A DNA stretch of 46,113 bases, filler included, from Jimgerdemannia flammicorona (taxonomy: Eukaryota): NCBI GenBank assembly GCA_003990765.1. It is 2 parts of 2 records of this genome, joined end to end, with 100 filler letters (N's around TTAATTAATTAA, not from the genome) between each part and the next. Parts side by side here need not be neighbours in the genome. Positions count along the whole stretch, not along the records: positions 1 to 23,016 come from RBNJ01001170.1; 1 more part is not named here. One strand, given 5' to 3'. This document shows positions 1 to 46,113 of this stretch, piece by piece. The position numbers were made by a program, and so were the translations under genes. Each line of letters opens with the position of its first letter. Positions within the stretch are counted from its first letter, which is position 1. The notes under the pieces are model-generated. The model made no database searches and was not told the DNA's origin. It was given only the letters and a program-made list of their open reading frames with translations.

Positions 1-1346
1 TTTTTTTTTTTTTTTTTTTTTTTTTCCTGTTACTCATTTATTAACTATCTATAACATGCCACATATCCTCATACAACATCAGTAGTCCCATTCTACCCCA
101 ATCTCAACCCACTCCCAGCCTTGTATCTTTAGGGTGTAAGTTGCGACCTTACTGCCCAAGTAACTAGATCCTCCTACCCGGTCTGCCCCACCCAGTGGGT
201 ATGGGTTGTGAGCCCCAACCACCTCAAGTACTTGGTATCTAGTGCACCTGATCTACCCCTATTAGTGCCTCCTGTCTTGCCTATCTAGCCCATCTTACCC
301 ACCCATGTTGCCCATGTTGCCATCTTGCTGTCTTGCCCATCTTGCCCATCTTGTCCATCTTGCCCGCCCATGTTGCCTGTGTTGCCCATGTTGCCCACCC
401 GTATTGCCCATATTGTCCATCTTGCCCATCTTGCTCGTGTTGTCCATATTACCCATCTTGCCCATCTTGCCCATCTTGTCCGTCTTACCTGCCCATGTTG
501 CCTGTATTGCCCATGTTACCCATATTGCCTATATTGCCTGTATTGCCCATTTTGCCTGTTTTGCCTATTTTGCCCATCTTGCCCATGTCACCTGTCTTGC
601 TGTCTGCCCATCTTGCCCATGTTGCCCATTTTGCTATCTTGCCCTTCTTGTCCATCTTGCCCACCTATATTGCCCATGTTGCCTGTATTGCCTGTGTTGC
701 CTGTGTTACCCACCTGTGTTGCCCATATTGCCTACCTGTGTTGCCAGTATTGCCTGTGTTGCCTGTTTTGCCCATTTTGCCCATTTTGCCCATTTTGCCC
801 ATTTTGCCTGTTTTGTCCATTTTGCCCATTTTGCCCATTTTGCCTGTCTTGCCCATGTCTCCTGTCTTGCCATCTGCCCATCTTACCCATATTGCCCATC
901 TTGCCATCTTGCCATCTTGTCCATCTTGCCCATCTTGCCCATCTTGCCCATCTTGCCCATCTTGCCTGTCTTGTCCATCTTGCCCATCTTGCCCATGTCA
1001 CCTGTCTTGTTGTCTTGCTGTCTTGCCCATCTTGCCCATCTTGCCCATCTTGCCCATCTTGCCCACCCATGTTGCCTGTGTTGCCCATGTTGCCCGTGTT
1101 GCCCATGTTGCCCATGTTGCCTGTATTGCCCATGTTGCCCATGTCGCCTGTCTTGCCATCTGCCTGTCTTGTCCATGTCACCTGTCTTGCCATCTTGCTG
1201 TCTTGCCTGTCTTGCCCATCTTGCTTGTCTTGCCCATCTTGCCCATATTGCCTGTGTTGCCCATGTTGTCTGTCTTTGTTTCTCTAAGTTATATGTAAAA
1301 CTGTTGCTTGAAGTTTGTGTAACACAAATTGTACTGGAGAGAGATG
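1..1346 (-). mobile_element. Non-autonomous poly(A) retroposon S1 (LINE-type 82-nt 5' leader + 9-bp minisatellite + AATAAA/poly(A))
   Basis: Minus strand starts CATCTCTCTCCAGTACAATTTGTGTTACAC at 1346, matching the 5' ends of the three LINEs, and reaches ATG (1264) after exactly 82 nt. AATAAA at 42-37; poly(A) of at least 25 nt at 25-1. It abuts LINE copy 1 ORF2 at 1347; the 3' TSD would be outside the window. Confidence 0.8.
271..1270. repeat. ~1-kb degenerate 9-bp minisatellite (TTGCCCATC / TTGCCTGTN variants) with 8-bp variants and higher-order blocks
   Basis: Tandem units are directly visible; marker blocks such as ATGTCACCTGTCTTG recur near 585, 855, 995 and 1140-1175. Confidence 0.95.
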
Positions 1347-4076
1347 TGGTGATGACTGCCTCTCCCGGATCTTCTGCAGCAGGGGAACCCAACCCCCTCT
1401 ATACAACTCCACTACCCTCTTAAGTCACCATGCCCTCAAGTAGTATAGTCATTTGGAGAAGTCCACCAGCTCAAGACCACCTCTCACCACTGATAGGGAC
1501 AAAGTCTCCCAACCAATCTGACTCCATCTGCCAGCCCAAATCCATCTCTTGGCCACCTTCACCAATCTCTTTACCACCCAGACTGGAAAGTCCAGATGAT
1601 AAGCTAAATATCATAGCTTCAGCAGCCAGTATACATTCAAAATCGAGATCCTTCCTACCAGAGAGAAATGTCTTCCCCCCCAACCCCACAGGTCCTCCTC
1701 CCAAATTCCAACCCTCTGCTCCCACCACAGTCTGGGCAGAACAGACCCATAGACCAACAAATAGATGTCCAAGTACCACACTGCCTCTCCAGTGGAGACA
1801 ATTGTTCCAATAACCTCTCCACCCACCAGGCCATTGCTCAGCACCATTGTTTCACACTTGTACCAATTCAGCTTCACCCCAGAGTTCTCCTCATACCACT
1901 CCACTATCTTCTTGAGCTCTTCGACATCAGCAATGACTCCCAAACCAACCACTATATCATCTGCAAAGGCTCCAACTTTCCAGCCAACTCTATAAATAGA
2001 GAGCCCCACTATCTTCTGCCGAATTCTGTCCATTAGAGGTTCCAAGGAAAGAGCATACAAAACAGGGGAAATTGGGTCCCCCTGGGGCACCCCCCTACCC
2101 AGAGGGAATGCTACCTCTCTATGCCCATTACACATGAGTGCTGCCCTACTCCCTTCCAGTAGGTTGACTATCACTGACCAAAATGGGACTGGAACCCCAA
2201 TTCTATCTAATATTTTCACTAGCCAGACTTGCTGCACCCGGTCATAAGCCTTCTCCTGGTCCAAGAAGACAAGATGCCTATCCAGTCCACAGGCTCTAGC
2301 ACCTTCAATAACTCCATATACCCAGGCTGTGCCATCTCTAATAAGCCAACCCCCTATGAAGCCCCTCTGCTCAATATCCACAATTTGCTGGGCTATCTTC
2401 TGTAGCCTTGTGACCACCACCTTAGTCACCAACTTTCTGTCTATATCCAGTAATATTATTGGTCACCAGTTCTTCCAATCCTCTTGCCTTCCTTTGTTCT
2501 TATAAAGCAGCATCACTAGCCCAAGATCCTGCTCCCCTACTCATCTCCCTGATTGCAATATAAAGTCACACAGTGCTGTCAACTCTCCCAACATGTCCAG
2601 GACTCCAACCATTTGCTTCCAGAAGTCCCAGGGTAGGCCATCCTCCCCAGGTGCCATACCTGAGGCTGTCGTGACAAGAACCTGGTAGATCTCATCCTCT
2701 TTTACAGGCATCACCAGATCACCTAGTCTCTCAGCTTGTAGTGGGTGCCAATCTTCTAATGTTCAGTCAATGGCTGTAGCATCTGCCCCACCCTCCTCCT
2801 CACTCCACAATCCACTCCATTGCTCCTTCAGCATTCCAAGGATATCCTGTACACCATGTACTAGTACACCATCTGAGTCAAGTACCCCTTTTCACTGCTG
2901 CTATACCCTTCTTGCTCAAAGTGTCCTCATGAGAAACTTGGAAGGCCTCTCTCCTTCCTCCAGCCCCTGCCAACAAAGCTGTGCCACCAGGCCTTGCATT
3001 CTTGACTCTTCCTCTTTCCACAGTATCTGTTGTAGTTCCCCAACCTCCATCTTCACCCTCATTATTCTCCAATCCTCTTCTCTCTCCACTACTGTCAGTC
3101 TCATCCACTCCTCCAGGAGCCTAGCCAATCTAGTAGAAGCCCAATGTACTCTCCACCTTCACTGCTTCCCAGCCTCTCTGCCAGCTTCACTCCAGTACAT
3201 CCTGGCCATCTCTTTTATCCTCACCCACCGAACCCCAATTGAGGCCCCTTCCTGCTACCAGTTCTCCACCTTCAGCTGAATGTCTTTCACCCACTCCTCC
3301 CACCAGGACTCATCATCCAACAAGGAGGAATTTAGACATCAATGTCCAGGCCCATCACCACTTCCCCCAAAACACCCCTATCTCAAAAGGCCCCAGTGAT
3401 CTGACCACAGACACCATTCCACCTCTAGCACCTTCTAAACATCGTGGCCCCAACAGTTGGCCATCAGAATCCAGTCAATTCTTGTCCCCAGGCCTCCAGC
3501 CCAATGCGTATATACCCTCCTGTCCCCCCAGTACTCCCTACCAGCATCCACCAGTACTCCTAGCCTTTCGACTTCCTCCCACATTACCAGCCCCCCACTC
3601 CTGCTCTCAGCACCCTGTCCTCCATCAGTTCTATCCAACTGTATATCTCGAACCATATTGAAATCTCCTCCAAGCATATCCACCCCAGTCTCAGCAAGGA
3701 TCCCACTTTCCTGGAGCCCTTTCACTCAATCCACATGCTCTCCCCACATGGCAGGGCAATAATAGGAGCCAATTGTGACCGGCTCCCAACCTGCACAAAT
3801 CCACTCACCCCAGACCAGTCTCTCCCCCCAGCTCCTCACATCTCTTATCTCCCCTCTGCCTTTCCGAACCAGAATCCTGACCTTGCTGTTCCAAATCACC
3901 ATACCACCCCATTTCTTTGTCCATTCTATCCTATCAGAATCATCCTCACACCTGACATCCTGCAAGAGGAAGAGATTGGTCTCCAATCCCTTCAGTCAAA
4001 TAAAAATATTCCTATATCTAACTGTGCCCCTTAGCCCATTCATGTTCAAAGAAAAAATGTTGATTGTACTGTTCAT
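1347..4076 (-). pseudogene. LINE copy 1 ORF2 (APE endonuclease + reverse transcriptase), stops, 3' part missing
   Basis: ATG at 4076; FLLQDV, GGDFN and RIDWIL (APE) and QGDPISP/AFADD (RT) in the ORF track. Confidence 0.9.
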
Positions 4077-4106
4077 AATGAAATACAGTTTGTTCTCAGT
4101 CGATCT

Positions 4107-6132
4107 CTACTGCTCTATGCTCATCTCCTCCTGTGCTATGTCCAAATTATGTTCAGCCATCACCTCCTCCTCTTCAGCCCTCTGAGCCTCCAATCCAGCC
4201 AACAGCTTATTTATCTTCTCATCAGCCTTCTCCTCAAACTCCTCTCTGTACTTGATGCAAGCCTCCTGCCAAAGCTGCAACCCATGATGCTTGTTCCAAC
4301 AGTACTCAGCCCTCTCCCCAGCAATAACCACCATCTCTGCCTCCTGCTCATTGTCTACCTCATACCCTTTCTCCTCCAGATACACTGTGAGAATTTCTGT
4401 CTTCAGTGCCATCACCACTTCTTCCCCCTGCAAAATTCTCATCCAGTACTCATCACCCATCCCATGCAAGTCCACCTCCCCCAACTCTTCTGCCACCAGG
4501 TTATTTATTATCTGGCACATCCAAAGTAGGTTCCCCATCTCCTTCCCACCAGGGGTCACCAGCCTCCCTCTGTCCAGCATCATGGTATCAGCCCCGGCAC
4601 TCACATCCTCATCCCATATCTCCAGGACATCTACCAGTTTCTCCTCCCTGGCTGCCACTACTTGATCTCCATTCATTACCTCCAGAATGCTGAATTTTAC
4701 CTACTGGGTCCCCAGCATCATCACATCCTCCCCAGTCTTGTTTCTGGAAGCCGGGTCATGCCTGATAAGAGGAGAAGGAGTGGGGGAGTTCTTCCAGACT
4801 TCATCCCAAACCTCCAAGGTGCCATTAGTATATGAGTTGCTAATCTTCATCTCTTTTGCCTTCCCTGTCTCCACTCTATCATTCCCACTCCTCTCGCCAG
4901 CCCAGATGCTCGCTCCGGCCCCTTCTGCATCTGTCTTCTTGCTTGCATCCTTCTGTAGTCCACCCCTCAGTTTAGCCAGCAGATTCTTCTGTCTCTTCCA
5001 CTCCTGAGCCCTTTCCCACTATACCTTGTCCACTTGAATCCTCTTTCCATCCACTACCTCCAGGTGCGTTGACTCCTCAAAAGTCTTCCAGGCCTTTGCT
5101 TGCCACTCCACAGTCCCATCTAATTCTTTCAGTACTTCTAATAAATCTTCTTCCTCTTCTTCACTTCCTTTCACCCTCGTCACCTTACACAGGATCACTC
5201 CCCAAACCATCACTGAAGACCAGTCCCTTGCCTTCCCAGTAGCCTCTTTCCCAGCCAGCTAAATCCTCACATCCATATCCCCAGTCCTGAGTGTGGTCTC
5301 TTCCCAGACCCTGAATCTGATATCTACCACCTCTCTATACTCCACCATAACATCCTCTACTTTCTTTCTTATCTCTATTACCATCACTATGGGTACTCCT
5401 TTCACCAGCAGTTGGACCACCCTTGGATCTCATTTCAAACACCTCGCCATCGGAACACATACCTCTCCAACCACCAACCCAACCTTCAGTACCTCCTCTA
5501 GTGGTTCAGCCTCCTCAAAACCCACCTCCACACCCTCCAGTCTCTTCAGAAACTTCACCGAAGCAGCTCCTGCCACCTGCTTAGCGATAAACCCCAGCAC
5601 CATTTTCACTATCACCGCTAAGCCCCAGAAGCACAGTGTAACCATGAATGCCAAGATCAATTTCTTGAGTAATAGGGCCACCACCAGGCCTATCATGCCA
5701 TCCACCAAATCTCCTTGTCTTCCAAGCCCCAGCTACTCAGCCTCGCCAATAGCCATCACATCTGGATTTTTTTCCAGATTAGCAGTTCCATCACTATCAG
5801 CAGTTACACTCTCCCTAGCCACTACTCCCCCAGCTTCACTGCCCCCCCTTCTAAGGGCCACTCCCCCCTGCACTGCTGCCTTCTCATTCTTCTTGCCCCT
5901 CCTCAGCCAGCCCTCCAGCCTCAATGCCTGCTGCCTCCCCTTCACCATCTCTGCAAAGCTCGTCCTTCTAGACTCCTGACCTCCACCAGTATCTCTACCC
6001 CTTCTTCATCCACCTGCCAGCAGCCCCCTCATGCTCCCCCCCCAGGCCTGGACCCCTCCCAACTTACTGTCATTTGAAAGCGCTTGGGCCACCCTGCCCA
6101 GTATGCACCTTATCTCACCTATCAGTTGTCAT
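4107..6132 (-). pseudogene. LINE copy 1 ORF1 (putative RNA-binding protein), premature stops
   Basis: Fragments 5733..5948, 5430..5708, 5019..5213 and 4107..4676 match copy 2 ORF1 in order; ATG at 6132. Confidence 0.85.
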
Positions 6133-6584
6133 ATTATTAGTCTCTTTGCTCCAAAAATGATATCATGAGTGTCTTCCAAAGGTTGTGTAACCTGAGTAGT
6201 ACTGGAGAAAGATGTCTGTGACTGCTTGAGTTTGTTGTACTAGAGATATCAGAACCTTGAGTCTGTTGGCTGTTTCTTCATTAATGAAGTTACCTAAGGT
6301 ACTACTGTCTATCATAATCTTGACAGATACTCAGTTGACAAAAGCTTGAAGTATAAGCAGTTTGTCTGATCCAATGGTAGTAATTTCAGTTGTAAGAGCT
6401 TTCTTTCTATTGGTTCTTCTTTGAGCCAGTTCATTGACACAAGAGAAGCAATCATCAATCATTCAGGAAGAGTATATTCTAATGCCATGGGGGCATTAGC
6501 CACTTGATACATATCTGTCTTCAATTTTCTTATTGAATTATTCTTCTTTATTCATGATAGGTTGGGCTGGGGCCTTGTTTAATG

Positions 6585-6986
6585 AGCCAAATCCTTTGGA
6601 TTCTTGGATAGTGGGTAATAGTTCAGGGACTTTCTTGACTATCAGCATTGACTCGATTTTTTCAAATAGGATCTGAGCAATATAGAAACCAATGGGGATC
6701 TTGAAGAGTATCCAACTATGGTTTTGGATGAGAATAATAATTTTGCCTATGTAATCTTCATCAATGACTCCTCCTTCTACTAAGAGTTCTTTTAATGCTA
6801 GGCTGCTGTAATAGCATATTCTTCCAACATGTCCTTCAGGGATTTGGATGCTGATTCATATAGACTTGCTTGACTTCTCAGTTGGAAACTGTGGCTTCTT
6901 CAGCTGTATATAGGTCATATCTAGCTGCTTTTTGACTTCCTTTGGTTGGGGCCTTGGCAGTTTGCCTTAACTTGACAAAGTCCAGT
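6585..6986 (-). pseudogene. dUTPase domain of Gypsy family B
   Basis: LDFVKL..AKAPTKGSQKAARYDLY...IPEGHVGRI..SSLALK..VEGGVIDEDYIGKI...IAQILF...SKGFGS: trimeric dUTPase motifs I-V, with one apparent frameshift. Confidence 0.88.
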
Positions 6987-11745: not shown

Positions 11746-12009
11746 ATACTTATTTTAACCTCTCTTTATTCTTAGATAACTTGAATAATAAGATATTACT
11801 TAGAGACTTGATATATATATTTATCAAGAAGTCTTTTAATTATTCTTTTACTTAGTAGTATTTACTAAGATTGAGAAAGTATAGTAGAAATAAAATATTA
11901 TTCTTCTTCAGTAACTATAGTTATAAGCATCTCTTTCTAGTACCATTCCGGTTATACAATCTTTGGAAGGTACTTTTGACATTGTTTTTGGCAAAAAGAG
12001 ACTAACAAC

Positions 12010-14034
12010 ATGGCAACTGACAGACAACCTGAGGTGTGTACTGGGCAGGGCGGCCCTAGCACTTTCGACTGGCAGCAGGTGGGGAGGGGGCCAGGCCTGG
12101 GGGGAGGTATGAGGGGCCTGCTGGCGGGTGGACATGGAAGGGGTGGAGGAGGTGGTGGAGGATCAGGATCTGGGAGGGCAAGCTTCACGGAGATGGTGAA
12201 GGGGAGACAGCAGACGTCGGGACTAGAGGGCTGGCTGAAGAAGGGCAAGGAGACCGAGAAGGTGATGGTGCCGGGGGGTGCGGCCCTTGGAAGGGGGGGC
12301 AGTGAAGCTACAGGAGTAGTGGCTGGGGGGGGTGTGACTGCTGATAGTATGGGAACTGTCGATCTGGAAAAAAATCCAGATGTGATGGCTGATGGTGAGG
12401 CTGAGCAGCTGAGGCTTAGATAACAAGGGGACTTGGCAGATGGTATAATGGGTCTGGCGGTGGCCCCGTTACTCAAGAAATCGATTTCAGCATTCGCAGT
12501 CACACTATGCTTCCGGGACCTAGCAGTGACGGCAAAAATGGTGCTGGGGCTCATCACTAAGCAGGTGGCAGGTGCAGTATCTGTAAAGTTTTTGAAGGGA
12601 CTGGAAGGAGTGGAGGTGGGTTTTGAGGAGGCAGTACCACTGGAGGAGGCACTGAAGGTTGGATTGGTGGTTGGAGAGATATGTGTTCCAATGGTGCAGT
12701 GCCTGAAGTGGGACCCCAGGGTGGTCCAACTGCTGGTGAAGGGAGTGCCGACAGTGACAGCAATGGAGACGAGGAAGAGAGTTGAGGATTTTATGGCAGA
12801 ATATGGCAAGGTGGTAGATATTGGGTTCAGGGTCTGGGAAGGGACCTCACTCAGGACTGGTGATGTAGATGTGAGGATTCGGCTGGCTGGGAAAGAAGCC
12901 ACTGGGAAGACAAGAGATTGGCCTTCAGCGATGGTCTGGGGAGCGATCCTATGTAAGGTGACAAGGGTGAAGGGGAGTGAGGAGGAGGAGGAGGATTTAC
13001 TGGAAGCACTCGAAGAGCTGGGGGGTGCGGTGGAGAGGTGAGCGAAGGCTTGGGAGGCTTTTGAAGAGGTGATACACTTGGAGGTGGTGGATGGAAAGCA
13101 GATTCAAGTGACCAAGGAGTAGTGGGAAAGAGCTCAGGGGCATAAGAGGCAGAAGGAGTTGCTGGCCAAACTGGATAGTGGACCAATGGGGGAGGTGAGA
13201 AAGGTGAAGGGCACAGGGGGAGCTGGAGCAAGTATCTGGGCCAGCGAGGGGGAGGGGAAGGACAAGAAGGAGGCGGGGAAGGACAAGAAGAAGGCTAAGA
13301 AGGACCTGTATGCGGATGGTATACTGGAGGTGTGGGAGGAGAACTGGGTGGACTCCCCTACCCCTACCCTTCTCATCAGGCATGGCCCAGCTTCCTGGAA
13401 TAGGGTAGTGGAAGATGTGCCAATGTGAGGGGCCCAGAGGGTACAATTCGGAGTTCCGAAGGTGGCATATGGGGGACAGGTGGAGGCGGATGGTGAGGAG
13501 GAACTGGTGGATGTCCCGGAAGTATGGGATGAGTCTGCAAGTGCTGGAGCTGACACCACAATGTTGGATGGCGGGAGGCCAGCAACTCTGGGGGGGAAAG
13601 AGGTGGGGAACTTGCTTTGGATGTGCCAGATGATGAATAACCTGGCGGCGGAGGAGTTGGGGGAAGTGGACTTGCGAGTGATGAGTGATGAGCATTGGGC
13701 AGGAATACTGCAGGGGGATGGCATGATGAAGGCATTGAAGGCGGAAATTCTTGCGGTGTACCTGGAGGAGGAAGGATATGTGGTGGATAAGGAGAGGGAG
13801 GAGGAGATGGCGGTTGTTGCTGGAGAAAGGGCTGAATACTGCTGGAACAAGCGACATGGACTACAGCTCTGGCAGGAAGCATGCATCGAATACCGAGAGA
13901 AGTTTGAGGAGAAGGCCGATGGCGAGATGAATGAACTGCTGGCTGGATTGGAGGCTCAGAGGGCTGAAGAGGAGGAGGTGGCTGTGGAACATAATTTGGA
14001 CAGGGCGCAGGAAGAGATGAGTATGGAACAGTAG
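12010..14034 (+). pseudogene. LINE copy 2 ORF1 (~675 codons; Gly-rich N-terminus, putative RRM-like core, acidic C-terminus), in-frame stops
   Basis: Same-frame fragments 12010..12423, 12433..13041, 13159..13428 and 13462..14034 are separated by stops, mostly explicable by C->T change. Confidence 0.88.
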
Positions 14035-14071
14035 AGGTAGATTGACAACATCACATACATATATCATCAAT

Positions 14072-17000
14072 ATGAACAGTACAACCAACATTTTCTCTTT
14101 GAACGTGAATGGGTTACGGGGCGCTTCTCGACGTAGGAACATTTTTACTTGGATGAAGGGATTGGAGGCTGATCTCTTCCTCTTGCAGGATGTCCGGTGC
14201 GAAGATGACTCTGATAGGTTAGAATGGATGAAGGAATGGGGAGGTGCGGCGATTTGGAAGGGCAAGGTTGGAATTCTAGTTAGGAAAGGCAGAGGGGAGA
14301 TACAGAATGTACAGTGCTGGAGGGAGAGACTGGTCTGGGGAGAGTGGATTTGGGCAGGCTGGGAGCCAGTTACGGTTGGTTCCTGCTACTGCCCTGCAGT
14401 ATGGGGTGATAGGGTCGATTGGGTGAAAGGCTTACAAGAGAGTGGATTACTTGCGGAGGCTGGGGTGGATGTACTAGGGGGAGATTTCAATATGGTTTGG
14501 GATATAATGCTGGATAGATCAGATGGAGGCTGAGGTGCTGAGAGCAGGAGTGGAGGGCTGGTGGCATGGGAGGAAGTGGAGAGGCTGAGTGCACTATTGG
14601 ATGCTGGACAGGAGTGCTGGGGGAGTAGAAGGGTCTATACCCATTGGGCAGGGGGTCTGGGGACTAGAATCGATTGGATTTTGACAGCCTGCTGCTGGGG
14701 ACTAGATGTTTGGAAATTATTGGAGGTGGAATGGTGTCCATGGTCGGATCACTGGGGGCTTTTGGGGCAGGGGTGCTTTGGGGGAAGTGGAGATGGGCCT
14801 GGACATTGGCACCTCAATTTCTCTTTGTTAGATGACAAGACCCAGTGGGATGAGTGGGCTAAAGACATTCAGCTGAGGGTGGAGAACTGGAGGCAGGAAG
14901 GGGCCACAGTTGGGACTCGATAGATGAGGATGAAGGAGATGGCCAGGATTTACTGGAAGGAGGCTGGCAAGGAGGCAGGGAAGTAGCGAAAACAAAGAGT
15001 GCACTGGGCCTCTGCTAGATTGATGAGGCTCCTGGAGGAGTGGGCAAGGCTGATGATGTTGGAGGGCGAAGGAGATTGGAGATTAATAAGGGTGAAAATG
15101 GAGGTTGGGGAACTTCAATAGGTACTGCGGGAGGAGGAAGAGGCAAGGGTACAGAGCTTAGCAGCACGGCTTCATTGGCAGGATCTGGAGGAAGGAAGGA
15201 GAGAGGCCTTCCAAGCTTCTTACAAGAGCCCTTCGGGCGAGACGGGTCCAGCAATGGTGGGAAGGGGTATTGGACTCTGATGGTGTACTGGTGCATGGTA
15301 TACAGGACATTCTTGGATCGCTGAAGGAGAGATGGAGTGGATTGTGGAGTGAGGAGAAAGGTGGGGTGGATGCTGCTACAATTGAATGAATATTGGAGGA
15401 TTGGTACCCACCACAAGTTGAAGGGCTAGGGGACCTGGTGATGCCTGTAAAAGAGGATGAGATCCACCAGGTTCTTGCCACGACAACATCCGGTATAGTA
15501 CCTGGGGAGGATGGGCTGCTCTGGGACTTTTGGAAGCAAATGGTTGAAGTCCCAGGGGTGATGGGAGAGATGACAGCGATATGTGACCTTATTCTATGAA
15601 CAGGTAGATGGGTGGGGGAACAGGACCTTGGGCTGGTGACGCTGCTCTACAAAAACAAAGGAAGGTGGGAGGATTGGAGGAACTGGTGGCCGATAATGCT
15701 GCTAAATATGGACAGAAAGTTGGTAACTAAGGTGGTGGTGGTGAGACTACAGAAGGTGGCCCAGCAAGTCATGGGTGTTGAGCAGAGGGGATTTGTGGGT
15801 GGTCAGCTCATCAGGGATGGCACTGCCTGGGTGCATGGCATCATCGAAGGGGCGAGGGCATGTGGACTGGATGGGCATCTAGTTTTCTTGGACCAGGAGA
15901 AGGCTTATGACCAGGTGCGGAGAGTCTGGCTGGAGAAAGTTTTGGATAGAATGGGGGTACCGCATCAATTCCGGTCAACAATGGTCAGCCTACTGGAAGG
16001 GAGTAGGGCTGCGCTCATGTGTAATGGACATAGAGGGGTGGCATTTCCCTTGGGAAAGGGAGTGCCCCAGGGGGATCCATTGTCCCCCATTTTGTATGCT
16101 CTTTCCCTGGAACCACTTATGGACCAGATTAGGCGGAGGATAGTGGGGCTCTCTGTCTTTGACATAGGATGGAAGGTTGGGGCCTTTGCTAACGACATGG
16201 TGGTGGGCTTGAGTTCGATTGCTGATGTTGAGGAGCTCAAGAGGACTGTGGAGTGGTATGAGGAACATTCTGGAGCTAAGCTGAATTGGCATAAGTGTGA
16301 GACGATGGTGCTAGGTAATGGCCTGGTGGGAGGGGAGGTTATAGGAACAATTGTCCCCACCAGTGAAGCAGTGTGGTACTTAGGTATCTACTTGTCAGTC
16401 TATGGGTCAGTTTTGCCCAAGCTTTGGTGGGAGCAGAGGATTGGAATCTGGGAGGAGGCTCTGCGGAGTTGGGGGGGAAGACATTTTTCTCTGACAGGGC
16501 GGGTCTCAATTTTGAATGTCTACTGGCTGCCAAAGTTGTGGTACCTGGTGTATCATCTGGACTTCCCAGCCTGGGTAGTGAAGAGATTGTTGAAGTCGGC
16601 GAAGGGATGGATTTGGGCTGGCAGGTGGAGTCAGATTAGTTGGGAGACCTTGTCCCTACCAGTGGCAAGAGGCAGTCTTGAGCTGGTTGACTTCCCAAAA
16701 TAGTTACACTGCTTGAGAGCATGGTGGCTGAAGAGGGCGGTGGAGTTGAGAGGAGGTGGATGGGTTCCTCTATTACAGAAGATATGGGAGAGGCGGGTAT
16801 CGCCAAGGGGCTCAACTGGTGATCTTCTCTCCTTGGTTGGGCTTCCGAACACTGCCCAACTACGATATAAAGGATTTTGGTGGGGAATTGCTGAAGGAGC
16901 ACACCGCATTGGCATTTGTTGGCAGGGGAATGAAGGTGAGGAGGATTGGGACCCAGCGATGTGGAGATGGGACCGTATACTGCTGGGGGGTGCTCCCTTA

Positions 17001-17732
17001 GTTGAGTTCAACATTGGTGATGGAATAGAATACCAAAGGGGACCAGGCCAGGATCTGTGGCCTAGTGGTTGGCAAGGAGTTGGAATTGGCAAGGAGTGGA
17101 ACTGGCATAGTGTTTGGACCTGGAGTGCTGCAGTGAGAGCTTGGCTGCCACCAAAGTACTGGGTGGTCTGGTGGCGCATGCTGCAGAGGAATGTTATGCT
17201 CAATTTTCACTTGGGGCACCTGGTTGTAGGGGGTTGCTTCGACTGTGAGGAGTGCTATAACGTAGGGCAGGAGGGGGGTTATATACAGACGCCGGAACAT
17301 TGGCTAGGAGAGTGTGAGGTGTTGGGGGATTTTTGGCGGATAATTGGAAATTGCTTAGAGGTATGGGGTAGGAGTGATGAAGCACAGGAATGATGGGAGG
17401 ACTTGAGGGTTAGATTGGTAGGGGAGATAGGGAAGGAGTGGCTTACTTTGGGTTGGGCTTTGGCAATTTGGGTGGGGTTGGCCAGTCATTGGCTATTTGT
17501 TTTTGAGGATGGGAGGAGACAGAACTTGGGGGACCAGCTGCTGCGATGGCATAGGCTTATGGAAGATACCTTAACAGGCTGGTGGCTGGGTTGGGGGATG
17601 TGGGGTGGTTGGAGGCGCCGCTTGGTAGAGAAAATCTGTGGGCAAAGTGGGGGGAGAGTGGGGGTAGTTGGTGAAAGGGTGATTTTCGTTCGTGAGAAAG
17701 TAGAGAGGGGCCCCCCAGTGGGGATTGGATAG
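14072..17732 (+). pseudogene. LINE copy 2 ORF2: APE endonuclease - reverse transcriptase - C-terminal CCHC zinc finger
   Basis: SLNVNGL, LQDV, GGDFN, RIDWIL and SDH (APE); LDQEKAYD, GVPQGDPLSP, AFAND and YLGI (RT); CFDCEEC...EHWLGEC (zinc finger). Confidence 0.93.
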
Positions 17733-17796
17733 TGGGTCAGAATGATGTATATTTATTTATAGACTGATAATAAAGACAGAGTCCAAGTGACTATAA

Positions 17797-17834
<38 letters not shown>

Positions 17835-17845
17835 ATAGTTATAAG

Positions 17846-18663
17846 AGACTTGTTTTTACTATATATAGACTGACCTCTTATGATTCAGATTCAAAAAAGT
17901 TTTCTTTTAGATTTATATATCAGTTTTTAGTTTTGGTAGAAGTTAGCTAAGCTTTTGGATTTTAGTTAGAAATACTAGAGTACTTAGAGTTCATTATTAA
18001 AAAACTTGAAGAAGTATATATATAGAAGAGAATTTTTACTTAACTAAGAGCTAATTTATTTTAAATATAATTACTAAGGTATTTATATATATTAGCTAAG
18101 TAATATTTTATAGTTTTTTGACTATTTCTATATAACTAATTGATTTATAACTACTTTAATTGTTTATTCACAAAATGAATAACTTTTATATTTAGAACAA
18201 CTGCTTTTGATTTGTGATCAGGGTAATCACTTTTGGTAATATATTGATTAAGTAATATAATTGCTATAATACTAATATAGACTCTAATATTTAGAGGATT
18301 TATTATCTTATTTTTTACATTTATCTCATTTATTTTATTTGTCTTGTTTATATATCACTTATTTATAACATTATTATTAGATTATATAATTGCTATTTAT
18401 AGTATATTATAGATATAATTTATTATATTTCTTTCTTCTTAGAAATTAATATCTATATTGATTTCTGTTTTATCTATCTTGAAGTTAAAGACTAGAGAAA
18501 TGATATCATTCTCATTCTCATCATTAGTATCACTCTAGTCAGTATATAAATTAGTAGGAGTATCAATATTAAAGGCAGAGAAATTAATGAGATCTATAAA
18601 TAGTTCTAGCTAAGCTAGATTGTGAGATCCTTTTACTAGTCTGGGATTATTTAGAGTAAGGTT
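17846..18663. other. Very AT/TpA-rich decayed repeat relic, family not assignable
   Basis: Composition matches the identifiable hypermutated relics; it is the target of the LINE copy 2 and S2 insertions. Confidence 0.4.
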
Positions 18664-18677
18664 AGAGATCACTATCT

Positions 18678-19875
18678 AACAGCTCTTTTCTCTACTATCT
18701 TACTGGTAACAAGATTTGATAGATAATCTTCCAAGTTCCCTTTCCCCTATTATTACCCTCTCTATCTCAGGTTAGTTTGCTATATCTGCAGGAACATAGT
18801 GAAAGGAGGGCAATGATGATGAGTTGCTCTTTTATCAGTATTGGATCAGTGTCTTCTCTACTTTTTTGTAAATTCTGGTGCCTTCAGCTATATCTGGGGT
18901 ATACTTATTTTGATACAGTATTTGCTTTCTTTTATTGTTATCAATAAGGTGTTGTCTCAGAGTATTATAGGTTATATAGAGAGTCAACCAACCTTGGGCA
19001 TCAAGTATCTAGTATAGGTTATCTGTAGGTTCTCAGTGCCTGTAGTGGGGCCCTCTGGCTTTGACAAGCTTTCTGACAAGCATAGTTCTGGCATAGGTAA
19101 CTATTTTTTAGGTGTTGTTGGGATGAGAGGGGAGATGATCATCATAGATAAGAGGAAGGGCAATAATGGTAAATCAGTAGAGTGCCAGACTAAGAGTAGT
19201 TTTTGAGACTGAGATAGATGCTGCTTTGGTGAGATCTTTTGATTGATGCAGAGTAGTTAGATAGTAGGTATCACTCTCAGCTTCTTTTGGTAATATATGG
19301 AGTTGGGCTCCAGTCATTGGAGGGGGGTCAGGGGGCCTGAGGCCATCTATTTTAGATATCTTAGCTATACTCAACTAGAACTAGAAGCTGATATAGCAAC
19401 ATGATGGAGGCTCATAGGCTTGAGTAGTGGGATATTAGGGGTCTCCTCCCACCTCACATGTAAGTCCTTTACTCACCTCATCTGAGAGAACTAGACTCTA
19501 TCCACTGTGATGTACTTTGATGAGAGTTTTTTCTTTGCCTATCATTCTTCTTAGAGTAGCAGGAGCTATTCTATTTGGCTCAAGCATAGCCTTATATATA
19601 TGTTGGGGTCTCAGGCATGTGCTTTTGGTCATTGGTGTATGGCTGAGTTCCTCCTGGTAGTAAGGAGAGTATGGTGTGCAAAATGAGATATAGGCTACTA
19701 TAGACCCTACTGCACCTAGTATAGTTAAGCTGCTAAATAATAGCTAGTCTAGATTAATAAGAGAGTAGTGTTTGATGGATGGTGGAAGAGGGTTTTGGCC
19801 TATATAGTCTAGATTCTCTTCTAATAAAAATCTGCAGGACTTTGAGTTTGTAAAATAAAATAAAAAAATAAATAA

Positions 19876-19925
<50 letters not shown>
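18678..19925 (+). mobile_element. Non-autonomous poly(A) retroposon S2 (~1.25 kb, unknown interior)
   Basis: 14-bp TSD AGAGATCACTATCT at 18664-18677 and 19926-19939; AATAAA at 19823-19828; A-rich tail from 19852. The 5' CTCTTTTCTCTACTATCTTACTGGTAAC (from 18683) resembles the LINE leader. Confidence 0.85.
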
Positions 19926-19929
<4 letters not shown>

Positions 19930-23016: not shown

Positions 23017-23116
23017 NNNNNNNNNNNNNNNNNNNNNNNNNNNNNNNNNNNNNNNNNNNNTTAATTAATTAANNNNNNNNNNNNNNNNNNNNNNNNNNNN
23101 NNNNNNNNNNNNNNNN
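23017..23116. other. Artificial contig linker (N44-TTAATTAATTAA-N44)
   Basis: Symmetric N runs surround a 12-mer with stop codons in all six frames; total exactly 100 bp. Confidence 0.95.
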
Positions 23117-26100
23117 CCTACTCCCTCTCGATGGAAGACCACTTTGTCAACCACCATCTCCACCCTCCCCCCACACTGGCTACAGATCCCTTCCACCAGA
23201 CGGCAATGTCGCCCACCCTGGGGACCCCAACCAACCCACAACCCAGTAAGAAGATTACCCATCAACTCCTCCCACCTCGCCAACTTCTTCTGCATCCCTG
23301 TCTATCACCCTTCCTCAAAAACAAATAGCCAATATCCAGCCAACCCTACCCACTGCAATCACCCACCCTACAGTGAGCCACCCATTGCCAACACCTCCCA
23401 CTAGTCTAGATTTCAAATCCTCCCAGTGACCTCACTCACCAACTGGCCTCCGTACTACACCCAGCCTGTTCCCTATAGCTAGCCAAAAGTCCCCCAATAC
23501 CTCACACTCTCTCAGCCAATGTTCTGGCATCTGCACAAAACCCCCAGCTTGCCCTACATTATAACACTCCTCACAATCCAATCAGCCACCATCCACTAGG
23601 TGCCCAGCACGGAAATTCAACATAACATTCCTTCGCAGCATTCGCCACCATACTACCCAGAACTTGGGAGGAAGCCACCACTGCACCTCAGCACTCCAGA
23701 CCCAGATTCCTGCCCAGTCCCACTCCTCACCAATCCCCACTGCCTGCCAACTACTTGGCCAAAGATCCTGGCCAAGTCCCCACTGATACACCACTCTATC
23801 ACCAATATCAAACTCAGCAAGTAGAACCCCCCCTAGCAGCAGTCTGTCCTAACGCCACATTGCAGGGACCCACACCTCCTCCCTCTCATTACCTTGCCAG
23901 CACAGGCCTATCTGGTGTGCTCCATCCACCACCCCCCACCAGAAGCTCTTATACCACAGCTGTCAGCTTCCATTCAGCCCCACCAGAGAGAGCAAGTCTC
24001 CTGAGGACCCCTGAGGTGCGAATCTCATCTCCCACACCTTCTGCATCAGCGGAACCCAACCTCCTCCTCGTAGTTCAACTGCCCTTCACAACCACCAAGC
24101 TCACAGACAGTGTAGCCTCCTAGGAAAATCCACAAGACCTAGGCCTCCTCTAGCCACTGGCTCCACAAGGGTATCCCAACTAATCTGCGACCTTCTCCCT
24201 GCCCAAATCCAATCCCAAGCCAGCTTCATCAGCCTCTTCACCACCCAGGCTGGAAAGTCCAAGTGATACACCACATATCATAGCTTGGGGAACCAGTACA
24301 CATTCAGGATCGACATCCACCCCACCAGGGAGATGTGATGACCCCCCCAACCTCTCAGAGCCTCCCCCCAAATGACCACCCTCCTCTCCCACCACCCCTG
24401 TGGTAAGACTGATCCATATATAGAAAGGAAGATACTGAGATACTGCACCACCTCTCCTGCAGGGACAATTGTTCCAATGATGTCCCCTCCCACCAACCCA
24501 TTCCCCAACACCAATGTCTCACACTAATGCCAGGTGAGTTTCACCCCAGAGTGTATCTCATACCATTCTACAGCATCTGTAAGTGCCTCAACATCCACCA
24601 CTGATCCAAGACCAACTACCATATCATCTGCAAAGGCCCCCACCTTCCACACCATCATACATAAAGAGCCCAGCCACCTTCTGATAGATCCTATCCATTA
24701 AAGGCTCTAGTAAAAGGGCATACAGAATAGGGGACAATGGATCACCTTGAGGCACTCCTCTCCCCAAGGAAAATGCCAAACCCATGTAACCATTGCACAT
24801 CAGTGCTGCCCTACTGCCCTCCAACAAACTCAACATAGAGGCCTGAAACTGTGGTGGGACACCACTCCTGTCCAGTACCTTACCCAGCCATACCCACCAA
24901 ACATGGTCATAGGCCTTCTCCTGGTCCAAAAAGGCCAGTCTACCATCCAGCCCACAGGTCCAAGCCCCTTCAATGATGTCATGCACTCAGGCAGTTCCAT
25001 CTCTGATAAGCCTACCTCCCACAAAACCCCACTGCTCCCCACACAGCACCTGTTGAGCAACTTTCTGCAGCCTTGCAACAATCACTTTTGTCACCAACTT
25101 CCAGTCCATATCCAAAAGCATGATTGGCCTCCAATTCTTCCAGTCCTCTTGCCTGCCCTTATCTTTGTACAATAAGGCCACCAACCCTAAGTCCTGCTCT
25201 CCAACCCACTTGCCATATAGAAGAACATGGTCACAGAGGGCAGCCATCTCTCCAAGCATTCCAGGGACCTTCGCCATCTTCTTCCAGAAGTCCCAAGGTA
25301 ACCCATCCTCCCCAGGTGCTGTCCCAAGCTTAGTAGCTGCAAGGACCCTCTGGATCTCCTCCTCTTGGACTGGTAAGATCAAGTCACCCAGGCCCTCTAT
25401 CTGCAGTGGTTCCCACTCCTCCAGTGTATCTCCAATCACCTCTACATCAGCACCTCCTTCTTCCTCACTCCACAGACCCCACCATCGCTCCTTCAATATC
25501 CCCAAGATCTGTTGCATGCTATGCACCAAATCCCCCTCAGTATTAAAGACCCCATCCCACCAATGTCGCACCCTCCTAGCTTTGAGGAGCCTAGACAAGT
25601 ACCTAGTAGGCCTCTCTCCCTCCTCAAGCCCCTGCCACCATAGCCTGGCAGCCATTCCTCGCATATGAGTCTCCTCCTCCTCTCTCAACACCTGCTGTAG
25701 TTCCACTACTTCCAATCTTGCCCACTCAAACCTCCAATCCTCCACCACAACAGAGTTAAGCAAATCTGCCCATTCCATCTGCAATCTCATCAGCCTATTG
25801 AAAGCATACCATATGTGCTTTCTCCTCTGCCTCCCAGCCTTTCTGCCAGCTCCTCTCCAATAAGCCTTTGCAGCCTCTTTCAATCTCATCCAATGGGCAC
25901 CCACAGACAGACCCTCATGCCTCCAAATAGCAACCTTCGCCTGGATGTCCTCCACCCATGAGTCCCACAACCCCTTCTCAGCCAGCAGGGAGGAGTTAAG
26001 GCACCAATGTCCAGGTCCATCTCCACTCCCCCCAAACTGCCCCTGCCCTAACAGTCTCCAGTGATCAGACCACGGGCACCACACTACCTCCAAAGTCTTC

Positions 26101-26741
26101 CAGACATCAGCACCCCAACATTCGGCTGTCAAAATCCAGTCAATTCTTGTGCCTAACCCATTCATCCAATGGGTGTAGACCCTGGTGTCACCCCACCTTG
26201 TTCAGCCCATATCCCCTAAGGAGCTGAGATTTTCCACCTCCTCCCATACATCCAGACCACCACTCCTCCCACCCGCATTCCTCACTCCATCAGTTCTATC
26301 CAGTTGTGGATCTCAAACCATGTTAAAATCACCACCAAGAACATTGACTCCTTTCTCCAAGAGAATAACCTCCTCCAGCAGCTCCTTAATCCATGTGATC
26401 CTCTCGCCCCTAACTGCCAGGCAGTAGCAAGAGCCCACCCTTACTGATTTCCACCCTGGCTAATACCATTCTCCCCAGACCAAGTGATCACCCCAGCTCC
26501 TGATTCCCCCCAAATCTCCTCTACCCTTCTTCACCAGAATCGCCACCTTTCCAAACCAAGCAATAGCCCCACTCCATTCCTTAGTCCACTCCACCCGATC
26601 ATCCTCATCCTCACACCATACTTCCTGCAGTAAAAAAAGATCAGCCTCCAATCCTTTGAGCCAAGTAAAAATGTTCTTATGCTGCCCAGATCCCCGCAGC
26701 CCATTCACATTCAGAGAGAAAATGTTAGTTGTACTTTTCAT
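23117..26741 (-). pseudogene. LINE copy 3 ORF2 (APE-RT-zinc finger), disrupted
   Basis: Fragments 26460..26741, 24987..26165, 24624..24986, 24278..24514 and 23582..23794 are homologous to copy 2 ORF2. Confidence 0.9.
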
Positions 26742-26772
26742 AAGAAATACTGTTATATATCAAACTCATCCT

Positions 26773-28803
26773 CTACAAATCCGCATTCAAGTCCTCCTGC
26801 ACCAAGTCCAAGACATGTTCCGCAGCTAGTTCCCTCTTCTCAGCTTCCTGTGCCTCCAACCCCCCCAGAAGTTCAACCATTGCCCCATCCTCTTTCTCCT
26901 CAAAGTCCTCATGATACTCCAGACAGGCCTCCTGTCAGAGCTGCAAACCATGATGCTCTGCCCAACAGTAGGCAGCCCGCTCACCAGCAACAACCACCAG
27001 CTCTGCCTTCCTCACCTCATCCACCTCATATCCCTCCTCTTCCAGGAAGATCACAAGAATCTCCACCTTCAGCACCTCCACCACTCCATCTCCTCGCAGA
27101 ATCTGTGCCCAATGCTCCTCAGGCATTACACATAGGTCCACTTCTCCCAACACCTCAGCTGCAAGGTTATCCATCACCTTGCTCATCTACAGCAGGTTCC
27201 CTACCTTCTTCCCTCCAGGAGTCCCTGGCCGCCTAGCATCCAGTATTGTTGTATCAGCTCCTATACTGGCAGCCTTATCCCACTCCTCCTCGGGGACATC
27301 CACTAGCTCATCCTCACCAACTGCCACCACCTGGCCCCCTTTCGCCATATCTGGGACCCCAAAGTGAACTTGCTGGGCCCCCTGCATTAGTACATCCTCT
27401 GCCACCCCTCTCTTCCCAACCAGGTCCCTCTTGATAAGTAGGGGGGGGGTGCCATCCAAATCCTCCTCCCAAACTTCAAAAGTACCATCGGCATAGGGAT
27501 CCTTGCCCAGTACCTTCCCAGCCCCTTCTTCGGTCACCACCACCTCCTCTCCTCCTTTGCTAGCCCATATGCTGGCTTTGATGCCTCTAGCCCCCTCAGC
27601 CCTGGCCACCTTTCTCTTCACCCCTCCTTCCATACTTGCCAACAGCTCCCTCTGCCTCTTGCACCCCTGGGCCCGCTCCCACTGCCTCCTGTCAGTATGG
27701 ATATGTTTCCCATCTACCACCTCCAGATGTGTCGACTCTTCAAACAGCTTCCAGGCTTTCGCCCTTCTCTCCACAGTACCACTCAGCTCCTCCAGAGCCT
27801 CCAACAAGTCCTCCTCCTCCTCTTCACTCCCTTTCACCCTCAACACCTTACAGATAAAAGCTCTCCACATCAGCACTGAGGGCCAGTCGCTTGCCTTCCC
27901 TGTGGCCTCCTTCCCTGCCAGCTGAATCCTGACATCAACATCACCTGTCCTAAACATGGTCCCCTCCCACATCTGGAAGCCAATGTCCACCACATCCCCA
28001 TACTCCACCATCACCTCCTCCACCCTCCTTCTGGTCTCCTCCTTTATCACCACAGGCACCCCCCTCACCAGAAGCTGCACTACTCTGGGGTCCCACCTCA
28101 AGCACTACACCATGGGGACCACCACTTCCCCAACCACTACCCCAGTCTTCAGGGCCTCATCCAGTGGGCCTGCCTCCTCAAAGCCCACCTCAACCCCTTC
28201 CAGACCCTTCAGAAACTTCACTGAGGCTGCCTCAGCCACCTGCTTCGAAATAAGCCCCAGAACCATCCTCACCGTCACTACCAAGCCCTAGAAACACAAG
28301 GTGGCCGCAAACTCCAAGATCAATTTCTTGAGTAACAGTGCCACTGCCAGTCCTGTCACACCATTGGCCAGGTCCCCCTCCTCTTCAGGCCCATCTGCCC
28401 AGCCCCTACATCAACTGTCACATCTGGATTTTTTGCCAGATTCTCAGTCATGCTACCATCAGCAGTCTCACCACTACCCCCAGCATCTACTCCACTTCCC
28501 CCACCTCCCACCAGCGAAGGCCCGCACCCCCAGCATCCCCAACCTTCTGCTTCCCCTTCCCTCCTGCCTGTCCACTGCAAGCTCCCATCGGCCAACCTCC
28601 AGTCCTCAGCGTGTCTGCAAGCTCCTCCCCTGCTGCCCTCCAGCCCCCCCACCAGTACTGCCTCCACTGCCCAAGCTGTCCTGCCCACTCGAGCCACCGA
28701 AGGACTCCATTCCAAGTCCATACCCTCTCCCGACATGTTGCCAGTCGAAGGCCCCAGGTCTGCCCAACCTAGTATGCATATCAGTTCGCTTGCTGGTTGA
28801 CAT
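26773..28803 (-). pseudogene. LINE copy 3 ORF1, frameshifted and with stops
   Basis: Fragments 28606..28824, 27187..28101 and 26935..27186 are homologous to copy 2 ORF1. Confidence 0.85.
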
Positions 28804-29390
28804 TATCTTAGTACCTTTCTCCAATAAACGACTTGAAAGTATGTTGTAAAAGTGTGTGTAATGTGAATTGTAGTGGAGAAAGGTGGCTATCAGTATTATT
28901 CTCAGTAAGAAGAACCCACCACAAGTATAATTCCCAGTATGCTGCCATATAAGGAACCTGCCACACTATACAGAGATTGTTGCACTATACAGAGATTGTC
29001 ATCCAGAAATCACATACTTTTGGAGATCATCATGCATCAAGATCATCATGCTACACAGAGATCATCACACAGAAATCACATAAGAAGAACCACTAAATTG
29101 CCAGACTGTCATGCATAAGGAAACCTCTTGTGCTATATACGAAATTCTACCAATTCCCAGTTGATCCAAGAAGGAAAAGATATACAAATCACCACTACAC
29201 TCAGAGAACCATCCAAATAAGGAAACTGCTTACAGATATTCAGCTTTGACTATTAGATCACTAAATACTAAGAACCTCAGGAATCTTAGAACATTTTGTT
29301 GCTTTTTGACAAAGTAACTAGGGGCTCAAGCCAAACTACATCAACCCCCAACCTTGTAATTTGCCTTCATTGAGTCAGGCACATTACATT

Positions 29391-29408
29391 TGGGGGCTCA
29401 ACTGGGAA
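29391..29408 (+). promoter_or_regulatory. Primer-binding site of A1 (tRNA-Pro-like)
   Basis: TGGGGGCTCAACTGGGAA two nt after the LTR end resembles the tRNA-Pro PBS TGGGGGCTCGTCCGGGAT; the A2 equivalent is at 41393-41410. Confidence 0.7.
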
Positions 29409-29933
29409 CTATTTCAAATAAATATGACTTTTCAGCTCACAAGAACCTACAGCCAAACTGGATATATTTGAGACAACACCAATCTCTGCCACTATAGGAG
29501 AACCAGTCATCACTAGCATTTGGACAGGAAGAGAAGTAATTACATCAAGATTTGCCAACTACCTAGTATCAGAAGGATTCTAATCAGAGACCAGCACTGT
29601 CCAAAATCTCCAACCAGATCAGCCAGATAATATAGGTAGCCCTATTGGAGATTTTGAAGAACTTGCTCAAGAACTAGAAGATCTTATCACATAAGCCCAA
29701 GATCTTACAGCCAGATACCCCATACTAGTCCCATCAATCTCACTAATAGAACCTTTACCACAAGTCCTTGCAGAAGTTGAAGTAGCTCCCACAAGAATAC
29801 CTGGGCTTATTTCACTTTGTTCAAGGCCCAGAACCACATCCTCAGGATACCCAAGCACCCCCATTTCCAGTGATAGTTCGGAATCTGAATCAGAATCAGG
29901 ACTAGAACCAGAATTAGAAAAAGTGATGACAAA

Positions 29934-32900: not shown

Positions 32901-33905
32901 CACCAAGGATGGGCAGAGGATGCCATCAATTTCATGGAAGCCCTAGACTCTACAGGAAGAAGAGGAATCAACTACCTCTGAGACCCCTCTACTAGAGCCA
33001 GGTGGCCACACCTCAACCTGAGAGCCTGGAGGCTTTCTCCTAGTGGAGCCTCAGCCCTAGGTCGGCCCAAACTCAGCAAGGATATTGCCCAGTATGCTCT
33101 GTTGCATCCCAAGGCCAAACCTCTAACCAAAGCCCACCCAGAAGACATAGGATATGACCTTCACAGTTTGGAGGACCAATCCATTAAGTCTGGAAAAACA
33201 TTTATAGTCAGAACTGGACTAGCCATGCAGCTATCCCAAGGAGCTTACATTCAACTTACCTCAAGGTCTGGACTTGCCTGACAAGGAATAACTGTAGAAG
33301 GAGGAACTATTGACCCAGAATATACAGGCAAAATCAAGGTCATCCTATACAACAGTGGTACAGAATGGCACCAAATTATTAAAGGGCAGAAGATTGCTCA
33401 AGAAGTCTTCATGAAGGTCAAGACCCCACAGTTATAAGAAGTTTCTGAACTGACTGAAGGAACATGACAAGCTAGAGGATTTGGAAGTTCAGATAAGAAA
33501 GAAGTACACCTCCTCCAAGTCAACCATCTCAAGAGGAATATCCCTCAGCAAGTGTACCACCAATCAGTCAGATTGCACAAGAATCTCATTCGGGAACCTG
33601 GAGAACAAATCACCTTCGAAATCTTTATACCACCTGATCCCAGAAACCTTTTATTTGAACCCAATGAAGATATCCCATACCTAGACATAGAAGGACACAC
33701 ATTTCCAGACAAGATGAATCCAGTATACTCCCAAGGAACCAACCAAAGTTGGGAAACCATCATCTTGCCAAAAGGAACCATCATAGGATATCTGGTGCCT
33801 TTTCTCAGCTGAACTCACAGAGAAGTTTATGAATTAATCTTATTGGGAAATGACAAAAGGTCCCAGAAGAAAGGAAAGGCCCCTCTGCAACCCAGGAGAC
33901 AGTGA
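29934..33905 (+). pseudogene. A1 gag-protease-Cys-rich linker-dUTPase (dUTPase ~33090-33494)
   Basis: Colinear with A2 41949-45948, with many more C->T stops. Confidence 0.85.
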
Positions 33906-45948: not shown

Positions 45949-46113
45949 AGCCTTCCACCAACATTGGAGAAGAATTGACACCTCAGCAACAGCAACAACT
46001 AGTAGAACTTCTCAACAAATATCAAAATATCTTCACCACCGATTATGGCAACCTGCCATACAACCCATCATATCACCACAGCATAAATACAGGAAGTGCA
46101 ACACCCATCTGGC

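Follow-up and report, generated by a model that had tools for sequence, protein, structure and literature searches.

S1 is an element of about 1.35 kb at the beginning of a 46,113-nt stretch of DNA from the fungus Jimgerdemannia flammicorona (assembly GCA_003990765.1), in which two parts of the genome are joined by a linker; this whole stretch is called the window below. S1 is a non-coding, polyadenylated insert with a start like that of a long interspersed nuclear element (LINE) and a 9-bp minisatellite in place of genes. It is best filed as a LINE-headed non-autonomous retroposon whose body is a variable number of tandem repeats (VNTR), and an L1-like LINE probably mobilises it in trans by way of the poly(A) of S1. 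In structure, S1 is a retroposed full-length transcript that combines a LINE-family start site, a signal-directed poly(A), no coding capacity, and a position inside another element.

S1 lies on the minus strand and reads from position 1346 to position 1 in the order head, 9-bp array, G-rich tail, and poly(A). The 82-nt head (1346 to 1265) starts CATCTCTCTCCAGTAC, with CATCTC at 1346, and ends before the first ATG (1264-1262). At this ATG begins the minisatellite, composed of ~105-108 units of 9 bp (271..1264), and it is followed by a unique G-rich tail of 245 nt (26..270). The AATAAA signal of the tail is located at 42 to 37, 11 nt ahead of 25 pure A residues (1..25). Because the window opens inside this poly(A), the full length of the poly(A), the 3' target-site duplication, and the resumption of LINE copy 1 lie beyond the window edge. 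A sequence-only reading made before this analysis had described an 82-nt leader followed by an ATG, about 1 kb of 9-bp repeats, an AATAAA signal, and poly(A) in S1; all of these were recovered here, with the ATG at nt 83 and the repeats found by the program TRF and by reading the sequence. No reverse transcriptase (RT), apurinic/apyrimidinic endonuclease (APE), or first open reading frame (ORF1) of a LINE was detected in S1 by Pfam, which gave low-complexity Collagen matches only. ARAGORN found no tRNA gene in the window, and no Rfam family was matched, either at the gathering score in the window or at E<=1 in positions 1-1500.

Three LINE copies are present in the same window. The second (LINE2; 11928..17832, plus strand) serves as the full-length reference and is composed of an 82-nt leader, degenerate ORFs with APE and RT, a zf-RVT-like C-terminus, and poly(A). 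The first (LINE1; 1347..6214, minus strand) has a complete 5' end at 6214 and is missing its 3' part from the equivalent of LINE2 position 16805, and the third (LINE3; 23117..28885, minus strand) has its 5' end at 28885 and its 3' end cut by the linker. This artificial linker between the two parts consists of N runs at 23017-23060 and 23073-23116 that enclose TTAATTAATTAA, and has stops in all frames. Self-BLAST of the window showed that the copies are 78.6% (LINE1/LINE2), 67.8% (LINE1/LINE3), and 69.8% (LINE2/LINE3) identical. Pfam analysis showed that the degenerate ORFs still hold an AP-type endonuclease (Exo_endo_phos) and an RT (RVT_1), the latter in LINE1 within the ORF 1611-2432. The C-terminus of ORF2 aligned (E 3e-11) to residues 865-1079 of a metagenomic relative (P0028) that is 37% identical to the LINE and has its zf-RVT domain at 1021-1079; zf-RVT itself stayed below threshold in the degenerate copy of the window. 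The named relatives are fungal, for example from Rhizopus and agarics, with ~30% identity, and the ESM Atlas was uninformative for the RT. Because of the APE and RT domains, the C-terminus aligned to the zf-RVT region, and the poly(A) end, the partner LINE is, by its sequence features, L1/Tx1-like and poly(A)-tailed. LINE2 is flanked by a 15-bp target-site duplication, AACTATAGTTATAAG, found after the poly(A) and directly before the first base; since this duplication fixes the 5' end, CATCT is the true 5' end and transcript start of the LINE family.

S1 begins at the same point as these LINEs. The first ATG lies at nt 83 in S1, in LINE2 (start 11928, ATG at 12010), and in LINE3 (start 28885, ATG at 28803); LINE1 (start 6214) also has an ATG at nt 83, plus an earlier one at nt 49. 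The S1 head was slid without gaps along the window on both strands; apart from the head itself, the three highest-scoring sites were exactly the three LINE starts, 11928(+), 6214(-), and 28885(-), with 50, 47, and 43 matches out of 82, respectively, and the fourth-best site reached 40 against a background of 21.4 (sd 4.4). A degenerate 28-nt head pattern, written from the four heads with S1 included, matched 4/4 heads and nothing else in the window at <=3 mismatches, with 0.01 expected. With S1 excluded, an nhmmer model of the three LINE heads still found positions 1346 to 1309 with an E value of 5.4e-6, and its next match had an E value of 2.2. Identity of S1 to the LINEs is 70-72% over nt 1-40. 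The rest of the S1 head is equal in length to that of the LINE heads and has 17/23 identities to LINE2 directly before the ATG. The 5' end of S1 thus coincides with the LINE 5' end in exact register and is homologous to it in sequence, as in a LINE-head retroposon, and the earlier statement that its leader agrees with all three LINEs in length and motif was upheld by the ungapped slide and by the model without S1.

No consensus RNA structure was found in the head, as the four-head alignment gave 0 consensus base pairs. A conserved RNA structure or ribozyme in the head was rejected on this result and on the lack of any Rfam match at E<=1. The conservation of the head is one of primary sequence, as expected of a promoter or initiator acting at the DNA level rather than of a ribozyme. 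When the part of the antisense ORF 266-1420 that covers the head (residues 318-385) was used as a protein query, 11 candidates came up, none of them significant.

From this anatomy, the S1 RNA would be non-coding and ~1.35 kb long, with the same start nucleotide and the same ~38-nt 5' motif as the resident LINEs and with an unrelated G-rich tail; it would keep the LINE's 82-nt spacing to the first ATG, with the minisatellite and the tail replacing ORF1 and ORF2. The conserved head may serve as an internal, downstream-acting RNA polymerase II (Pol II) promoter or initiator, by which each new copy would carry its own start site. The transcript would then be cleaved and polyadenylated at AATAAA, and the LINE endonuclease and RT would copy it in trans into a nicked target, for which a poly(A) 3' end would be nearly sufficient, as for other L1-type enzymes. 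The target of the S1 insertion would have been an older LINE copy. The sequence-only reading had called S1 a LINE-mobilised non-autonomous parasite; this claim is partly supported, in that the anatomy fits it (LINE head, poly(A), and no Pol III head), and it is from sequence that we infer promoter activity, Pol II transcription, and trans-mobilisation.

Several results weigh against S1 being a propagating LINE-headed retroposon. Independent significance is limited to the first 38 nt of the head, and identity to the LINEs is 33-52% over nt 41-82. Neither the LINE 3' parts nor any other region of the window matched the tail significantly: with poly(A) removed, its comparison with the LINE 3' end gave z values of 1.3 (LINE2) and 2.1 (LINE3) over 300 shuffles, below the best shuffle. 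An alignment between the tail and the LINE 3' end with a score of 68 was rejected, as it was owed largely to poly(A) and lost its significance once poly(A) was removed. The S1 3' end and the LINE 3' end have in common only the AATAAA signal, poly(A), and composition (G 0.33 and C 0.15 in the tail, G 0.40 and C 0.11 in the LINE 3' untranslated region, G 0.15 and C 0.11 in the background). The earlier description of the tail as loosely like the LINE 3' untranslated region consequently does not hold, since the alignment is nonsignificant and base composition alone is alike. The excess of G over C on the sense strand of array and tail, like that of the LINEs and unlike the AT-rich background, speaks for the retroposon reading.

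The evidence from elsewhere counts in part on this side. One full copy of S1 has been seen. The head pattern CTYTYTCYASTACNAYTNNNNTTAYACA gave 0 matches in metagenome_contigs, genome_contigs, and viral_contigs. A 27-mer of the array was found at 34 loci in metagenome_contigs, and the head or the tail accompanied it in 0/34 (E<=1e-3). We also used a 57-aa frame of the S1 tail as the query for a phmmer search of 1.84 billion representatives. The results showed one true relative (P0080; E 2.2e-16), which is RUP42893.1, an 89-aa 'hypothetical protein' of Jimgerdemannia flammicorona encoded on a 6,871-bp contig. Its first 42 aa are the 9-bp array in the Gly-Lys-Met frame (Met-Gly-Lys and Met-Gly-Asn units), and its last 46 aa are the S1 tail, with 37/46 identities (80%) without gaps, directly after the array; its Atlas model is unfolded, with a predicted local distance difference test (pLDDT) score of 0.22. 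Judged from these sequences, the array-tail module is present at least twice in public data, the second time in another record, which favours the retroposon reading. The P0080 locus, known from 89 aa alone, may be a paralogue or an orthologue of S1. The sequence-only reading had named a single copy as a finding that would speak against it; this objection is weakened by the recurrence of array and tail in P0080. With P0080 as the query, no relative was found in genome_contigs or viral_contigs. Two further phmmer matches, P0081 (E 4.7e-6) and P0082 (E 1.3e-4), were judged unrelated, since they are internally repetitive and a 21-23-residue stretch was matched many times. In P0081 (430 aa), a unit of ~55 aa matches residues 12-34 of the tail frame seven times with 51% identity, which may be chance low complexity or a tandemly repeated relative of the tail.

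These observations bear most directly on the explanation that S1 is a one-off derivative, in which one LINE copy lost its ORFs, a minisatellite grew in their place, and the product was retroposed once or never, with P0080 as the orthologous locus and no propagating family. The single full copy, the lack of head or tail matches in the DNA collections searched, the one true relative among the phmmer representatives, and the age of the LINE copies, which are degenerate and 68-79% identical, all favour it. However, the S1 head is 52-61% identical to each LINE, no closer than LINE3 is to LINE1 and LINE2 (59-60%), and because it stands no closer to any one LINE, S1 did not arise recently from a neighbouring copy. 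A full 5' end, an AATAAA signal, and a pure A25 nested in another element are also the retroposition signature of a complete transcript. Moreover, the single P0080 match is a lower bound, as relatives above 50% identity are merged in the representative library and repeats are often masked in the annotation of fungi. On this evidence we regard a one-off origin as unlikely, and we hold that S1 belongs to a propagating family with moderate confidence, because one full copy and one protein-level fragment are all that has been seen.

The junction between S1 and LINE1 admits a second explanation. LINE1 and LINE2 are homologous over 1347-6214 and 16805-11928, with a sharp break at 1347/1346; the homology of LINE1 to both LINE2 and LINE3 ends to the nucleotide at 1347, and the CATCT of S1 starts immediately after. 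Self-BLAST and the junction alignments agree in this with the earlier claim that the homology of LINE copy 1 to copy 2 stops at 1347. LINE1 may have been the element into which S1 inserted. Alternatively, it may be the 5' partner of a template-switch chimera, in which the RT copied the S1 RNA to its 5' end and jumped to an internal point of a LINE RNA, making LINE1 (6214 to 1347) and S1 one insertion. In favour of a chimera, S1 and LINE1 share one orientation and both have complete 5' ends, with the 3' end of LINE1 missing, and chimeric retrocopies made by L1 are known with a layout resembling LINE1 plus S1. Nevertheless, although the window is compatible with both, a nested insertion is simpler in a window made almost wholly of retroelements, and we consider the chimera less likely again than a one-off derivative. 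Even in a chimera, the LINE enzyme would have to copy the S1 RNA, so this explanation bears on how S1 was inserted and leaves its nature as it is.

An assembly artefact, in which a mis-join at a repeat brought together a head, an array, and a tail that were never one molecule, could be suspected because the window starts within a homopolymer and holds an artificial join, and because minisatellites are hard to assemble. However, the array-tail junction is independently present in P0080 in another record, the head passes into the array through a LINE-like ATG context, and the junction of LINE1 and head falls exactly at the true 5' end of the family, where a random mis-join would not fall. An artefact is accordingly very improbable.

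TRF reported the array at 302-1268 with a period of 9, 108 copies, 72% matches, and 8% indels. Its commonest sense unit is GCAAGATGG, with variants that have AAC, AAA, or AAT and ATG or ACA. The spacing is 9 in 75/104 anchor intervals, the reading register shifts 22 times, and each of the three sense frames has 4-6 stops; these shifts and stops show that the array has not been maintained as an ORF. Pfam Collagen scored 36.2 bits on the ORF 732-1193 (cut-off 27.2), and such matches arise from the GGN-NNN-NNN period of the array. Two of the three longest 27-mer matches in metagenome_contigs, L009 1-4017 (-) and L010 910-3702 (-), are long intact collagen-repeat ORFs (Pfam Collagen E 5e-138 and 1e-8, respectively), and these unrelated look-alikes show that real genes gain this Gly-Lys-Met codon repeat independently. 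We give almost no credence to S1 as a real gene, or the retrocopy of one, for a Gly-X-Y (collagen-like) repeat protein, since the Gly-Asn/Lys-Met/Thr frame opened by the ATG at nt 83 stops after 28 codons, the array shifts register and is stopped as just described, any GGN-NNN-NNN repeat would yield the Collagen score, P0080 is annotated as a protein but has the low pLDDT given above, and the true collagen-like genes with the 27-mer are intact and have neither head nor tail. Derivation of the array from the first ORF1 codons was not established: collinear similarity after the ATG reached a nominal level with LINE2 alone (scores as high occurred in a fraction of 0.03 of the other windows for LINE2, against 0.55 for LINE1 and 0.20 for LINE3), and the collinear position was outscored by other sites in the LINEs.

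The non-autonomous LINE-headed retroposon thus remains the preferred reading of S1, and it has two kinds of known counterparts. In the trypanosomatid pairs RIME/ingi and NARTc/L1Tc, as far as the portions of the reports used here describe them, the non-autonomous partner has the first ~77 nt of the LINE, with an internal Pol II promoter in L1Tc (PMC1874656, PMC8190864, PMC3383444). Like RIME and NARTc, S1 is an ORF-less poly(A) retroposon with the 5' hallmark (~77-82 nt) of an autonomous LINE. In contrast, RIME and NARTc keep the LINE 3' end or are truncated LINEs, and the S1 tail is not detectably LINE-derived; their partner belongs to the ingi clade, their hosts are trypanosomatids, and they have no minisatellite body, whereas S1 goes with an L1/Tx1-like LINE in a fungus. 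The trypanosomatid hallmark, Pr77, is described as doubling as a ribozyme like that of hepatitis delta virus (PMC3185411, in the part consulted). The heads of S1 and the LINEs are unlike Pr77 in having neither consensus structure nor an Rfam match, and fold searches set them apart. Because the LINE clade differs, no ribozyme-like fold was found, and no 3' end is shared, S1 is not a member of the trypanosomatid Pr77 family, and the likeness lies in the mode of working.

The second counterpart is SVA/LAVA, which the parts of the reports used here describe as VNTR-bearing Pol II retroposons mobilised by L1 in hominoids (PMC7353768, PMC3287187, PMC4432496) and as a hominoid-specific class (PMC7353768). 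Like these elements, S1 is non-coding and has a tandem-repeat block between unique 5' and 3' modules, followed by AATAAA and poly(A). SVA/LAVA elements are 1-3 kb long and trans-mobilised by an L1-type LINE, on which S1 is predicted to depend as well. SVA has Alu-like and SINE-R modules at its ends and no LINE 5' head, whereas S1 has a LINE head. The repeat units of SVA are tens of bp long and those of S1 are 9 bp. Because the class is hominoid-specific and built from primate modules, the likeness of S1 to it would be convergent, and we treat S1 as a putative functional analogue of SVA/LAVA only and do not file it as a member. S1 is not a classical short interspersed nuclear element (SINE) either: such elements are short, non-autonomous, and dependent on a LINE RT, as proposed for S1, but have Pol III heads (tRNA, 7SL, or 5S), none of which was found in S1.

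The LINE itself resembles Grem-LINE1, an L1-clade LINE of Mucoromycotina described with an AP endonuclease, an RT, and a zf-RVT in this order and with a poly(A) signal (10.1101/706580, in the part consulted). The domain set in the window is similar (APE, RT, and a C-terminus aligned to the zf-RVT region), and identity to the named Mucorales relatives is only ~30%. In the same part, no Endogonales genome is reported to contain Grem-LINE1 at the thresholds applied there. No paper on an element such as S1 in Mucoromycota turned up in a partial literature search. S1 is still less new than the sequence-only reading had stated, as LINE-5'-sharing partners in trypanosomatids and VNTR retroposons in hominoids were already known.

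A second non-coding poly(A) retroposon, S2, is located at 18674-19926 (+). It is ~1.25 kb long, has an A-rich tail (19852-19926), and is flanked by a perfect 14-bp target-site duplication, AGAGATCACTATCT. S2 resembles neither the LINEs nor S1, and its ORFs gave no Pfam match; as a second head-bearing element it was rejected (LINE-head model E 8 at 18674). Its presence is circumstantially consistent with the LINE machinery of this genome mobilising foreign poly(A) RNAs. We also observed a loosely similar motif (CAGTCAT, CAGTCAC, TAGTTAT, TACTGAT, and GAGATCAC; n=5) 10-15 nt upstream of five retroposon 5' ends, in the flanks 1347-1360, 6215-6230, 11913-11927, 28886-28900, and 18660-18673; it might reflect a target preference or chance.

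Elsewhere, the window consists of AT-rich DNA, with 22-29% GC in places, and of Ty3-type long terminal repeat (LTR) elements with protease, RT, integrase, and dUTPase. One Ty3-type LTR retrotransposon is present in two copies that are 84% identical, at 29038-34068 and 41052-46111 (+), both with a zinc knuckle, an aspartyl protease, an RT, traces of an integrase, and a dUTPase domain. Just outside LINE copy 1, at 6538-6855 (-), lies another fragment of a dUTPase. The LINEs and S1 (1-6214, 11928-17832, and 23117-28885) have a GC content of 48-56% and a sense GC skew of about 0.33-0.55; the background around them has 22-29% GC and almost no skew. This could be a family composition or the result of strand-biased mutation.

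The Jimgerdemannia flammicorona genome is given as ~240 Mb with >77% repeats in the part of the source used (PMC10386755). As a tentative and on balance doubtful extension, S1 could be one member of an independently evolved fungal counterpart of SVA: a Pol II-transcribed, LINE-promoter-headed family with a hypervariable 9-bp minisatellite, amplified by an L1-like LINE in the repeat-rich genomes of Endogonales-type fungi, where it would leave Gly-X-Y-like minisatellites and spurious 'hypothetical proteins' scattered over many loci. Such a counterpart would join the trypanosomatid 5' promoter hallmark and the hominoid VNTR body, so far known separately. As a one-off, S1 would be an ordinary nested retrocopy. 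If it belongs to a propagating family, an RNA would need no more than the first few dozen nt of a LINE and a poly(A) to succeed as a parasite of an L1-type LINE in fungi, and VNTR-carrying retroposons would be no peculiarity of hominoids. In that case S1 would also be a natural minimal substrate for mapping the internal promoter of the LINE (conserved nt 1-38) and the template needs of L1-like enzymes, and its family would explain some of the short 'hypothetical proteins' in repeat-rich early-diverging fungi.

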